A DNA stretch of 64,000 nt from an uncultured Clostridia bacterium (GTDB lineage Bacteria > Bacillota > Clostridia > Christensenellales > UBA1242): assembly GCA_944351415.1 (NCBI GenBank), contig CALVPQ010000002.1, positions 801 through 64,800 on the forward strand. Reading direction: 5' to 3'. Shown one piece after another: positions 8,301 to 11,055 of the stretch. A program made the translations under genes and the position numbers. How positions within the stretch are numbered: the first letter of the stretch is position 1; each line of letters starts with the position of its first letter. The notes under the pieces are model-generated. The model searched no databases and had not been told where the DNA came from. It worked only from the letters and a program-made list of their open reading frames with translations.

Positions 8301-9470
8301 ATGATAATCTTATATATTATCTTAGCTATTGCAATTTTGCTTCTCATGGTTTTAATTCATGAATTTGGACATTATTGCATAGGAAGAATGCTAAACTTTA
8401 AAATTACGGAGTTTTCTGTTGGTTTTGGTAAAGCCATATTTTCTCGCACAAATAAACGGGGAGAACTTATTTCTCTCCGCATTTTTCCGTTAGGTGGATA
8501 TTGTGCTTTTGCTGGTGAGGACGAAACAAATTCTGATGATAAAGATGCCTTTACCAATCAAAAACCATGGAAAAGAATTTTAGTATTTCTGGCTGGTGTT
8601 ACATTTAATTTTGCCACAGCAGTTATATTCTCTTTAATTCTTCTTTGTACTGTTGGTTATGACATACCACAAGTTGTTAATAGAATAGAAATAAATAGTT
8701 CAACAATTGAAAATATGGTTGATGGGAGCCTAAATACAAACCTTGAAAACGTTCCTCAAGAACAACAGCTACAGGCAGGAGATGTTATAATTTCCATAAA
8801 TGGAGAAAAAATAGATTTTGCTTATGGTTCTAACTATAATGATTTAATTAATGCTGAAATTTCAGATTTAAATACATTTCTTTCTGGAGTTAGAGAACGT
8901 GGCGAAGATGAAGTTGAGGCCTTTAAAAATTATGAAACATTTCCTGCTGTTGTGAGAAGAGGAAGTGAATACGTTGATGTTCAGCTTGGTTTTTATCAAG
9001 TGCAAATAGAGAATTCAGCAGAAAGCGAATCTGAGTTAGTTTATAGTTATTATTGGGACGTGAATGTTAAAGCTTATGTTCACACTTTTTGGGAAGGTCT
9101 TGAAAGAGCTGTTCCGTTTGCTTTTGGGCTTGCATGGGTTGTTTTAAAATCACTATGGCTTTTAATAACATTTCAACTTCCTATTTCTTCTATAGGAGGT
9201 CCAATAACAACTATTGCAACTATAGCAACATATACACAAACGAATATCTCAAATATTTTAATTTTGATTCCTTTAATTTCTGCTAATTTAGCAATCTTTA
9301 ATGCTTTACCAATACCTGCATTAGATGGCTCGCATATAGTTTTCACAACTATAGAAGCAATTAGGAAAAAGCCTATTAAACGTTCAACAGAAAATATGAT
9401 TCACACTATAGGACTTTTTATACTATTTGGATTTGTCATTTTAGTTGACATATTGCATTTTCTGTTATAA
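8301..9470 (+). CDS. rseP: RIP site-2 metalloprotease RseP/RasP
   Basis: HEFGH in TM1, an internal PDZ-like region, and C-terminal NALPIPALDG. Confidence 0.9.
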   Translation: MIILYIILAIAILLLMVLIHEFGHYCIGRMLNFKITEFSVGFGKAIFSRTNKRGELISLRIFPLGGYCAFAGEDETNSDDKDAFTNQKPWKRILVFLAGVTFNFATAVIFSLILLCTVGYDIPQVVNRIEINSSTIENMVDGSLNTNLENVPQEQQLQAGDVIISINGEKIDFAYGSNYNDLINAEISDLNTFLSGVRERGEDEVEAFKNYETFPAVVRRGSEYVDVQLGFYQVQIENSAESESELVYSYYWDVNVKAYVHTFWEGLERAVPFAFGLAWVVLKSLWLLITFQLPISSIGGPITTIATIATYTQTNISNILILIPLISANLAIFNALPIPALDGSHIVFTTIEAIRKKPIKRSTENMIHTIGLFILFGFVILVDILHFLL

Positions 9471-11055
9471 AATATTTTACGTGATAGATTTAATAGAAAG
9501 TCTTAATAAACAATTTAATAATAAGTATAATTTTTTAAAATTATTAAGTGTTGTGTATGAAAAAAAACAAAAAATATGCACAATAACTTTTTTGTATCCA
9601 TATCAAATAGAAGAAATTTCTGAACAAGATAAAACAGAAATAGATAAATATATTAATGGATTAATTCCACTTAGTAACATAATTAAAATTAAATTCAAAA
9701 AAAGTTTTCTTGATGAAAAACTAATAGTAGAAGATGTTATTAATTTTTTTATTGAAAATAAGAAGGGACTTATACCTTATATTTCACCAGAAAATATATC
9801 TTCAAGTTATAACGAACAAGACGTAGAAATAAATATAACTTTTAATCAAGATGTGTTGGCTCTCATAGATGAATTTGAACTTAGAACACAATTAAAAGAA
9901 AAACTTAGCGAGTTATATATAGCAAATTTTACAATAAATTTAATAGAAAATGAAGATACATTACCGGAAAAAATTGAAGCTGAAGATATTATTCCAACGC
10001 TTACAAAGGCAAGACGCTATAATGTTAATATTGAAAAAAAATTAGTAGGTGGAGATATAATTCCTAAGCCTGAATACATCAAAGATAATACTAAACCTAA
10101 AGCTTCTGTTATTTTGTCTGGATTAATCTCTAACAAAAATCAAAAAAAATATGTTATAAAAAAGGGGAAAAGAGCTGGGGAAGAAAAATCTCTCTATTCA
10201 TTTAGCTTAAGAGATGAAAGTGGCAGTGTAGAGTGTGTATATTTTTGTCCAAAGTCACACGAGAAAACAATGAATGCAATTGAAAATGATACACTAATTA
10301 TTTGTGTTGGAGATTTAAAGTTAGGTATAAATGGAAAACTTACATATTACTTGCGAAAAATATCTTTAGCAAGCCCTTATATTGAGAATATAAGTCAAGC
10401 TAATGATAATATAGGTGTTGAAAATATGATAAGAAATCATAAACAAATTATATTTCCTGATTTACTTCCTAGAAGTTCACAATCCTTTCTTTTTGAACAG
10501 AAAATTGATTATAATGATTTTATTTCAAATAATAACATTGTAGTATTTGATATTGAAACAACAGGGTTAGACCCTGATACTTGTGAAATTACCGAAATAG
10601 GAGCCGTTAAAATAGAAAAAGGCGAAATAACTGAAAGATTTTCAAGTTTTGCAAGACCTAAAAATCCTATACCTATAGAAGTTCAGGAACTTACAAATAT
10701 AACAAACGAGATGGTAAAAGATGCTCCAAAAATTGAAGATGTTATACTAGATTTTTATGATTGGACACGTGGTTGTATTATTAGTGGCTATAATATCATT
10801 AATTTTGACTTAAAGTTTATAAAGAAAGTAACAGATAGATTAGGATTACCATTTGATAATACTGTAGTAGATACTTATATAGTTGCAAAACAGTCAAAAA
10901 TCCACACTAGCAACTATAAACTTGGAACAGTTGTTAAGGCATTAGGGTTAACATTAACGGGTGCTCATAGAGCATTTAATGATGCTTATGCAACTGCTCA
11001 AGTTCTAATGGCGTTAAATTGCAAAAATTCTGAAGATAATCTTAATAAAAAGTAA
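9445..11055 (+). CDS. PolC-like N-terminal domain + OB fold + DnaQ-type 3'-5' exonuclease, with no polymerase or PHP domains
   Basis: Exo motifs VFDIETTGL, GYNIINFDLKF and HRAFNDAYA in the C-terminal third. An OB-like segment SLYSFSLRDESGSVECVYF lies upstream of them. The gene occupies the polC position before rimP. No in-frame ATG occurs for about 275 codons, so the start must be TTG 9445 or GTG 9481. Confidence 0.65.
   Translation: MTYCIFCYKIFYVIDLIESLNKQFNNKYNFLKLLSVVYEKKQKICTITFLYPYQIEEISEQDKTEIDKYINGLIPLSNIIKIKFKKSFLDEKLIVEDVINFFIENKKGLIPYISPENISSSYNEQDVEINITFNQDVLALIDEFELRTQLKEKLSELYIANFTINLIENEDTLPEKIEAEDIIPTLTKARRYNVNIEKKLVGGDIIPKPEYIKDNTKPKASVILSGLISNKNQKKYVIKKGKRAGEEKSLYSFSLRDESGSVECVYFCPKSHEKTMNAIENDTLIICVGDLKLGINGKLTYYLRKISLASPYIENISQANDNIGVENMIRNHKQIIFPDLLPRSSQSFLFEQKIDYNDFISNNNIVVFDIETTGLDPDTCEITEIGAVKIEKGEITERFSSFARPKNPIPIEVQELTNITNEMVKDAPKIEDVILDFYDWTRGCIISGYNIINFDLKFIKKVTDRLGLPFDNTVVDTYIVAKQSKIHTSNYKLGTVVKALGLTLTGAHRAFNDAYATAQVLMALNCKNSEDNLNKK

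Follow-up and report, generated by a model that had tools for sequence, protein, structure and literature searches.

The window analyzed here is a 64,000-nt stretch of DNA from an uncultured Clostridia bacterium (GenBank assembly GCA_944351415.1, contig CALVPQ010000002.1, positions 801 to 64,800). In this window, the slot that holds polC in other Clostridia is occupied by a shorter gene (9481..11055, + strand), which encodes 524 aa from a GTG start codon to a TAA stop at 11053-11055 and agrees with the 524-aa database gene call. Judging from its sequence, the product corresponds to PolC minus both halves of the PHP domain, the polymerase core, the HhH domain, and the C-terminal tail; going forward, we refer to it as the short form. 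We think that this polymerase-less PolC descendant is probably a clamp-tethered, trans-acting proofreading exonuclease, functionally similar to the epsilon subunit of DNA polymerase III (Pol III).

A short gene in the polC slot

The window is AT-rich (~29% GC) and carries, all on the + strand, the gene order frr-uppS-cdsA-rseP-ORF-rimP-nusA-ylxR-infB, in which the open reading frame (ORF) is that of the short form. Upstream, the site-2 protease gene rseP (8301..9470, +) marks the ancestral polC slot, and its 3' end houses the short-form promoter. Downstream, the slot is bordered by rimP, the first gene of rimP-nusA-ylxR-infB, which has its own promoter apart from that of the short form. Other Clostridia have a polC of 1340-1600 aa in the equivalent slot, with rseP and/or ispG upstream and rimP-nusA downstream (loci L059, L063, L070, L073, L080, L094, and L096). 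A first-pass annotation of the window had described a 536-aa ORF in the polC position between rseP and rimP-nusA; this is confirmed by synteny and by the full-length polC genes in the same slot of other Clostridia. The reading frame spans 536 aa when read from TTG 9445 and 524 aa when read from GTG 9481.

By tblastn with 33 PolCs, remnants of PHP or the polymerase were detected neither in the window nor within 10 kb of its two ends (best off-target E = 0.19). The search covered the region downstream of the ORF, where a frameshifted polymerase remnant had been named as the sign of simple pseudogenization. The polymerase core (palm, thumb, and fingers; PF07733 and PF17657), HhH, and the C-terminal QLSLF motif are found neither in the ORF nor elsewhere in the window or its flanks. 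The 10 kb beyond the two window ends encode PolA, thrS, obg, nth, and similar genes, with no C-family polymerase among them, and the dnaE anchor pfkA-pyk is absent from the window.

Domain architecture and descent from PolC

The C-terminal part of the short form is a DEDDh (DnaQ-type) 3'-5' exonuclease domain (Exo; residues 353-512, 10537..11016; residues are numbered from GTG 9481, and all features of the protein are on the + strand). Pfam identifies RNase_T (PF00929) over residues 354-509 (E = 2.5e-34; score 119.6 bits, cutoff 24). All three catalytic motifs are present: ExoI with D357/E359 (10549-10557), ExoII with N438..D443, and ExoIII with H496..D501 (10966-10983). The earlier reading of a DnaQ-type exonuclease with intact ExoI, ExoII, and ExoIII motifs is borne out by this match and by the invariance of D357, E359, D443, H496, and D501 in 52/52 members of the short-form family. 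The best NCBIfam and PDB matches of the short form are PolC exonuclease domains (NF001688; 2p1j, E = 1.3e-27). It scores 94.5 bits on the TIGR00573 "dnaq" domain, above the cutoff of 71.5, and 148 bits on the NCBIfam PolC equivalog, which has a cutoff of 873. The short form is thus a member of the DEDDh/DnaQ superfamily and not a PolC. Beyond Exo, the protein extends by ~12 residues to its C-terminus.

Ahead of Exo lie an N-terminal domain (NTD; residues 1-160, 9481..9960) and an OB-fold domain (residues 182-299, 10024..10377), which are homologous to the PolC NTD and OB. The NTD consists of modules NI (1-76) and NII (77-160), in a tandem alpha-beta-beta-alpha(-alpha)-beta arrangement. Pfam finds the OB fold PF01336 at residues 212-295 (E = 4e-7), as well as in 34/40 and 38/45 short-form members, and recognizes nothing in the first 200 residues. 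There is no Pfam match to PHP (PF02811) or polymerase domains in the short form or in the members scanned, which, with the negative tblastn search, upholds the previous claim that PHP and the polymerase core are missing.

To compare these domains with PolC, we aligned a 52-sequence short-form profile with 26 PolCs from the loci using hhalign. The NTD query (1-175; residues 14-161 aligned) matched PolC 20-170 (90%, E = 1.6e-6), OB matched PolC 250-356 (97.8%, E = 1.1e-12), and Exo matched PolC 455-623 (100%, E = 9e-70). Results were similar with an independent group of 17 PolCs whose N-termini had been verified by Pfam: the NTD matched PolC 8-155 (94%, E = 1.2e-7), with NI on NI and NII on NII, and OB matched at ~98% (98.3%, E = 1.4e-14). 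The NTD controls fail, as reversed targets gave E = 0.15 and the best of 20 column-shuffled queries gave E = 0.016. In the first-pass annotation, residues ~1-330 had been described as PolC-like, with the NTD as a guess; the NTD and OB alignments and the failed controls support that description. The NTD, OB, and Exo alignments are co-linear and cover PolC residues ~8-620 overall. The proposal that the domain order mirrors the first third of PolC thus holds for NTD-OB-Exo, but the PHP-N segment between OB and Exo is missing: with both PolC sets, linker residues 296-352 had no significant hhalign match to PolC PHP-N.

AlphaFold modeled the whole short form with a predicted local distance difference test score (pLDDT) of 85.8, and an AlphaFold2 model of the N-terminus reached a pLDDT of 86.7 and a predicted template modeling score (pTM) of 0.74. 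The best PDB match of the whole model by Foldseek was E. faecium PolC (9qpc_A, 389 columns), a structure in which the NTD is not resolved (PMC12592400). The nearest folds to the NTD model are tandem KH-II, BON, and RBM (ring-building) modules. Since the PolC NTD has been predicted to adopt a tandem KH-like fold (PMC3919608), the fold of the model supports descent of this domain from the PolC NTD.

Distribution and conservation of the short form

The short form is conserved in relatives. A search of 5.8 billion clustered proteins returned >120 homologs at 50-80% identity, all 505-524 aa in length. In an exhaustive profile search of 1.84 billion representatives, the best 150 matches at the 50%-cluster level were all ~500-590 aa or fragments, and none of them was fused to a polymerase. 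A scan of one genome per species identified a 500-530-aa ORF just upstream of rimP-nusA in 51 species representatives (23-68% identity to the window protein), and a metagenome scan added 7 further loci with the short form, bringing the total to ~58 loci with the same slot (rseP/ispG-X-rimP-nusA). The carriers are labeled in their records as Candidatus Onthoplasma, Coproplasma, Scatosoma, and Gallimonas, or as Christensenella sp. and Christensenellaceae. In a tree of NusA, which is encoded by a linked gene, all carriers form one clade, apart from the loci with full-length polC. Because the carriers make up a single NusA clade that spans 28-63% GC, their distribution points to a single, old origin of the short form. 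Database names for these proteins are generic ("hypothetical," "RNase H-like domain-containing," "3'-5' exoribonuclease"), and in the searchable literature we found no prior description of the short form or of PolC-less Christensenellales.

Mean pairwise identities among short forms, compared with those among PolCs of comparable depth, are 21 vs 15.5% for the NTD, 30 vs 28.5% for OB, and 51.7 vs 52.7% for Exo. The family is under strong purifying selection, with per-domain conservation equal to that of true PolCs. This bears on whether the gene could be a non-functional remnant, either a decaying polC pseudogene or an artifact of assembly or gene calling. It is, after all, a truncated derivative of an essential gene, with a non-ATG start and no Shine-Dalgarno (SD) sequence. 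However, the ~510-aa length recurs in at least 150 clusters (50% identity) and in ~58 independent loci, the catalytic residues are all invariant, there are no frameshifts or downstream remnants, conservation equals that of functional PolCs, and most homologs have ATG at the aligned start. We therefore reject a remnant in this sense as extremely improbable. From the first-pass suggestion of a remnant of polC decay, we retain descent from polC by in-place loss of PHP and Pol, while the pseudogene part conflicts with the observed conservation.

A candidate clamp-binding motif in the OB-Exo linker

The OB-Exo linker (residues 300-352, 10378..10536) is located at the junction where PolC has PHP-N. 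Two elements stand out from its otherwise variable sequence: [H/Y]xxVxP at 320-326 and Q-x-x-[LMIF]-F at 334-338. In the first of these, Y321 and P326 are nearly invariant, and pLDDT is 88 at residues 321-330, as opposed to 45-51 to either side. The second element, QSFLF in the window protein (residues 334-338, 10480..10494; consensus Q-x-[DNSG]-[LMIF]-F), is a candidate beta-clamp-binding motif; the consensus for such motifs is QL[S/D]LF or QxxLF (PMC12309361). It sits in a low-confidence loop (pLDDT ~51), ~24 aa ahead of Exo.

A QxxLF-type motif occurs at the aligned position in 50/52 members, even though these are only 23-68% identical, and Q334 and F338 are among the few near-invariant residues outside Exo in this divergent alignment. 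Among the 26 PolCs, none has QxxLF in the 70 residues before Exo; the clamp motif of PolC, Q[LIV]SLF, is found at the very C-terminal end. In E. coli epsilon, the clamp motif QTSMAF is found beside the exonuclease domain (PMC12309361). It appears that the PolC clamp motif was lost with the polymerase and that the short form carries a replacement at the deletion junction.

Start codon and promoter

The best promoter-like match in 9300-11300 (11/12) begins with the -35 hexamer TTGACA (9445..9450, +), which lies in the last rseP codons. A 17-nt spacer separates the -35 hexamer from the -10 hexamer TAAAAT (9468..9473, +), whose first three bases are the stop codon of rseP and which lies 7 nt before the GTG. 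The TTGACA box is common to the window and 11 relatives and overlaps the rseP codons V/I-D-I, of which Asp is encoded by GAC in 12/12 sequences, though GAC accounts for only 20% of Asp codons in the genome. This uniform codon choice argues for selection on the DNA motif itself. Where the junction was counted (window, L001, L007, and L008), the -10 hexamer is 6-7 nt from the start codon; this spacing puts the predicted transcription start on the start codon or one nucleotide ahead of it.

Two possible starts had been suggested initially, TTG 9445 and GTG 9481, along with the observations that no in-frame ATG occurs in the first ~275 codons and that there is no obvious SD sequence. GTG 9481 is the right one, as the homolog N-termini (MIDxxEKLN) align to it, most of them using ATG at this position; TTG 9445 is not a start but the first three bases of the -35 hexamer. 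Both observations are correct: the 536-aa reading has no in-frame ATG before ~codon 275, and nothing SD-like precedes GTG 9481. An SD-like sequence is present in 27/35 other window genes, and the more distant short-form members have ordinary ones. Based on the TTGACA-17-TAAAAT-7 nt-GTG geometry, we predict that the short-form mRNA in the window's subclade is leaderless and starts at GTG 9481, which would explain the missing SD sequence.

Proposed function

We propose that PHP and the polymerase core were lost from a polC gene in its usual slot, in the ancestor of one deep Clostridia clade whose records carry Clostridia or Christensenellales-type labels. What was retained would be the tandem KH-like NTD, the OB fold, and the DEDDh 3'-5' exonuclease; the C-terminal clamp motif would have gone with the polymerase, with QxxLF now located in the flexible OB-Exo linker. 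Through QxxLF, the short form may dock on the beta sliding clamp. Its OB fold could then hold single-stranded or primer-template DNA while the DEDDh site removes mismatched 3' termini, proofreading in trans for a polymerase encoded elsewhere. The PolC NTD probably keeps the short form attached to the replisome, by whatever contact the NTD makes in PolC. In the window's subclade, expression would proceed from its own promoter inside the rseP end, via a leaderless mRNA from GTG 9481.

Our favored candidate for the partner is the clostridial DnaE1, since the literature attributes to it a conserved putative epsilon-binding surface; some Clostridia are DnaE1-only (PMC3919608). Clostridial DnaE1 also has a canonical clamp motif and an intact PHP site (PMC3919608; PMC12926913). 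Among the interpretations originally offered for the ORF, a dedicated proofreading or nuclease factor fits best, given the purifying selection, the invariant catalytic residues, and the newly acquired, putative clamp-binding motif.

Several points weigh against this proposal. The Pfam models of the PolC N-terminus (PF14480 and PF11490) match 0/85 short-form members as single sequences, and NTD homology is deduced from profile-profile comparison and fold; true PolCs often are also without matches to these models, and the PolC NTD is described in the literature as poorly conserved. Clamp binding is deduced from a short motif, the glutamine of which is missing in 2/52 members, and the short form has no C-terminal polymerase-binding tail of the kind by which E. 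coli epsilon is held to alpha. In many bacteria, initiation at a leaderless GTG should be inefficient; as an alternative, translation may be coupled to that of rseP, whose stop is 10 nt upstream. Since clostridial DnaE1 usually has its own active PHP proofreader (PMC12926913), the need for a second one is not obvious. Finally, 48/52 ORFs (at least 150 aa) are co-oriented with the skew-inferred direction of replication, and the leading strand is G+A-rich. Among the genomes surveyed, such purine asymmetry was found only in PolC-containing ones; it was missing from both of the PolC-less Clostridia known at that time (PMC4070872).

The same features might also suit a clamp-recruited repair or recombination exonuclease, which, independent of any one polymerase, would shorten 3' ends at gaps, at stalled forks, or in mismatch-repair intermediates. 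Stand-alone DEDDh repair nucleases are common, with bacteria averaging >3 DnaQ homologs per proteome (PMC12926913), and QxxLF motifs are used by many repair proteins (PMC12309361). The short form has no operon link to replication genes in the window or the loci, and its structural neighbors by Foldseek include ExoI, ExoX, and TREX-type nucleases. Its Exo, however, is most similar to PolC proofreading domains and not to the ExoX/ExoI types. The PolC-specific NTD and OB are kept at PolC-like conservation, which argues for a continued replisome context, and the gene occurs throughout the clade, invariably in the polC slot. We therefore regard a repair role as rather unlikely.

The neighborhood raises a further alternative, an exoribonuclease in RNA or ribosome maturation that is tied to the downstream rimP-nusA-infB operon. 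The gene adjoins ribosome-biogenesis genes, the RNase_T family includes RNases, the NTD is KH-like, and one NCBI record names a member "3'-5' exoribonuclease." Yet this position is inherited from polC, which is found there in other Firmicutes, and rimP is served by a promoter of its own. Moreover, the nearest domain relatives are proofreading domains of DNA polymerases, and a beta-clamp motif would be sensible only on DNA. An RNA-directed role is accordingly quite improbable.

The polymerase partner and PolC variants in other lineages

The polymerase served by the short form could be the other part of a split PolC. In that case, an Exo-less PolC (NTD-OB-PHP-Pol or PHP-Pol only) encoded elsewhere would combine with the short form into a non-covalent two-piece PolC, the result of polC duplication and reciprocal loss. 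Exo-less PolCs do occur outside the canonical slot, as seen for P0376 (L180:10001-13813, 1270 aa) and P0330 (L182:10001-13657, 1218 aa), and an engineered G. kaustophilus PolC without NTD and Exo is reportedly an active polymerase (the 3F2B work). Such PolCs are known almost only from Clostridia and Negativicutes (PMC3919608), and 16% of PolCs in PolC+DnaE1 systems are without Exo (PMC3919608; PMC12926913). In addition, the local strand composition is of the PolC type (PMC4070872).

The loci themselves speak against a split. There is no C-family polymerase within 10 kb of the short form in ~58 loci, and no ORF of at least 800 aa resembles PolC in the 51 loci, nor in the 7 metagenome loci. Exo-less P0367 and the Exo-degenerate PolCs described below occupy the canonical slot of other lineages. 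The two non-canonical Exo-less PolCs have different contexts (one adjoins hisS-aspS, and the other lies between a UPF0182 gene and a TetR regulator), with SLH-domain proteins at both. P0376 and P0330 resemble the Negativicutes-type PolC, exemplified in Timinskas et al. (2014; PMC3919608) by Acidaminococcus PolC with NTD+OB+PHP+Pol3+HhH. As in-paralog partners, the Exo-less PolCs were rejected: a hidden Markov model (HMM) of the short-form NTD+OB scores them, including the non-canonical ones, no higher than ordinary PolCs. An outlier score against this profile came from L081 (8240-13054), explained by a tandem OB duplication in its 1604-aa PolC (two "VWGE..VE.K.T..G" segments). Furthermore, a partner with its own NTD, OB, and clamp motif would leave the NTD, OB, and gained motif of the short form unexplained. 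Altogether, we consider a split PolC unlikely. The first-pass suggestion of a naturally split PolC is not supported, as no polymerase half adjoins the short form in ~58 loci and the Exo-less PolCs that could be placed are either in the canonical slot of other lineages or at loci without a detectable link to it.

Other candidates for a polymerase half or for the clade's PolC were also rejected. In L020, L039, L057, and L083, the genes that separate the short form from rimP encode leucine-rich repeat (LRR) surface, EAL-GGDEF, and beta-lactamase-family proteins. Homology to the L063 PolC core is not informative, as the core is at least 60% identical across all Clostridia and ranking cannot isolate one clade. 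The "Christensenellales" PolCs P0320 and P0272 are both in the canonical slot of other lineages. The 849-aa "PHP+Pol only" protein P0380 (L092:5969-10550) follows 2 kb without a called gene in the polC slot and is probably a frameshifted or miscalled polC, not one that is naturally split. Neighboring GenBank accession numbers could not be used to pair PolCs with short forms, since they come from different projects. The accessible parts of the polymerase survey tables (2014 and 2026) have no polymerase rows for Christensenella.

Every polC-derived gene that was checked in the canonical slot of related lineages is the sole one there, whether full-length (L063, L094, and L096), Exo-less, or Exo-degenerate. 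P0367 (L093:8001-11723) is an Exo-less PolC of 1240 aa (NTD-OB-PHP-Pol) in the canonical ispG-polC-rimP slot of another lineage and is the reciprocal of the short form. P0312 (L097:10001-14245) and P0383 (L098:10001-14245) also occupy the canonical ispG-polC-rimP slot in other lineages. These two, as well as P0301 and P0377, are PolC-length proteins (1412-1416 aa) without ExoI (DxETTG), ExoIII (HxAxxDA), an RNase_T match, or BLAST similarity to the short-form exonuclease; in these PolCs, the proofreading insert seems to have degenerated or been replaced. Modular loss from PolC in place is thus a recurrent theme, and the short form can be accounted for without relocation.

With regard to the clade as a whole, we see a real possibility, somewhat short of an even chance, that DnaE1 took over replication and that the redundant polC was cut down in place to NTD-OB-Exo, gained a clamp motif, and is now an epsilon-like DnaE1 subunit in a PolC-less clade. 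Correspondingly, our view that there is no PolC polymerase anywhere in the clade is a tentative one, which we hold slightly less readily than its opposite. The probability that remains beyond this and a split PolC goes to a second complete PolC or to other arrangements.

Other features of the window and loci

The rimP promoter (TTGATT-17-TATAAT with TG, 11139-11167), leader, and gene together span 11139..11700 (+), with rimP itself running from TTG 11239 to 11700. In the leader (11168-11241), GGGAGCG (11184-11190) pairs with CGCTCCC (11204-11210) to form a hairpin. Alternatively, the 3' arm of this hairpin could pair with the SD-like AGGGAGG (11225-11231) ahead of TTG 11239. An Rfam scan of the leader yielded no family at the gathering threshold.

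In four carriers, there are insertions in the slot between the short form and rimP (L020:11428-15336, L057:4991-8512, L083:12548-13366, and L039:11091-14276). The inserts encode BspA-type LRR/Listeria-Bacteroides-repeat surface proteins, with a beta-lactamase-family protein also in L083; in L039, the insert is an EAL-GGDEF protein. Insertions seem to recur at the slot.

Elsewhere in the window, a 358-aa ORF without a Pfam match (4687-5763, -) separates tsf from frr, two genes that adjoin each other in the relative L001. It resembles an insertion specific to this lineage, within a housekeeping block that is otherwise co-oriented. A T-box leader (54834-55103, -; 96.8 bits) is found upstream of pheS-pheT, with a tRNA gene nearby (56424-56502, -). 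GC and AT skew change sign, and gene orientation switches from + to -, near 38-40 kb. Genes at this switch include those for a tyrosine recombinase (44019-45053) and for a protein of 626 aa that has a PadR domain at its N-terminus (38366-40246, -). The region 36000-45100 looks like a replication terminus region.

Implications

In Firmicutes, PolC is considered the essential and defining replicase, and antibiotics aimed at it are now in late clinical development. That a large and abundant clade of gut bacteria has only a proofreading module at the polC locus raises the question of how its members replicate and proofread their DNA, and suggests that carriers proofread, and perhaps replicate, DNA differently from other Firmicutes. 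The short form may also represent a natural experiment in which a cis-acting proofreading domain became a trans-acting subunit with a newly placed clamp-binding motif. Published polymerase surveys removed fragments without a polymerase active site (PMC3919608) and would for this reason have discarded the short form. Conversely, BLAST-based calls of PolC presence (PMC11040001, PMC4070872) could mis-score it as "PolC present."

If the clade is indeed PolC-less, it would be an order-level group of Firmicutes with an independently evolved "Gram-negative-style" alpha/epsilon arrangement derived from a replicative polymerase. These gut commensals would then have an intrinsic insensitivity to ibezapolstat and other antibiotics that target PolC, which would affect predictions of the microbiome spectrum of PolC inhibitors. 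A PolC-less clade would likewise run counter to the reported association of PolC with purine asymmetry and strong gene-strand bias, with consequences for models built on it.

Comparison with known systems

The closest comparison is PolC itself (E. faecium 9qpc; G. kaustophilus 3F2B), with which the short form shares the slot, a homologous NTD-OB-Exo order, and equal per-domain conservation. Unlike PolC, the short form is without the whole PHP domain (including PHP-N), palm, thumb, fingers, HhH, and the C-terminal clamp motif, and it cannot polymerize; the clamp motif in its OB-Exo linker is not found in PolC. The Exo-less and Exo-degenerate PolCs (Timinskas et al. 2014; P0367, P0376, P0330, P0312, and P0383) likewise arose from this ancestral PolC by the loss of modules, frequently in the equivalent slot. 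The outcome is reciprocal, however: they keep NTD-OB-PHP-Pol and have lost or inactivated Exo, whereas the short form keeps NTD-OB-Exo and has lost PHP-Pol. They are found in other lineages, with no co-occurrence seen.

In proposed function, the short form is most comparable to the E. coli-type Pol III epsilon subunit (DnaQ), which is also a stand-alone DEDDh proofreading-type exonuclease with an adjacent clamp motif; as noted, the short form scores above the TIGR00573 cutoff. The two are not orthologous: the short-form exonuclease descends from the PolC insert, and only the DnaQ fold is shared. The candidate clamp motif of the short form precedes Exo, whereas that of epsilon follows it, and the short form is without the C-terminal alpha(PHP)-binding tail and has an extra 300-aa NTD+OB module. 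A different rearrangement of the coupling between a DnaQ proofreader and a C-family polymerase is known from Bacteroidetes, in which DnaE1 has an N-terminal DnaQ fusion (Timinskas et al. 2014); there, the proofreader is fused to DnaE1, while the short form would represent its release from PolC. Lastly, S. aureus DinG (8zef, 9ii8) has a related DEDDh domain (E = 4e-19, 32% identity) outside a polymerase, but its DnaQ domain is fused to a helicase-like domain instead of the PolC NTD+OB, and it is encoded in another genomic context.

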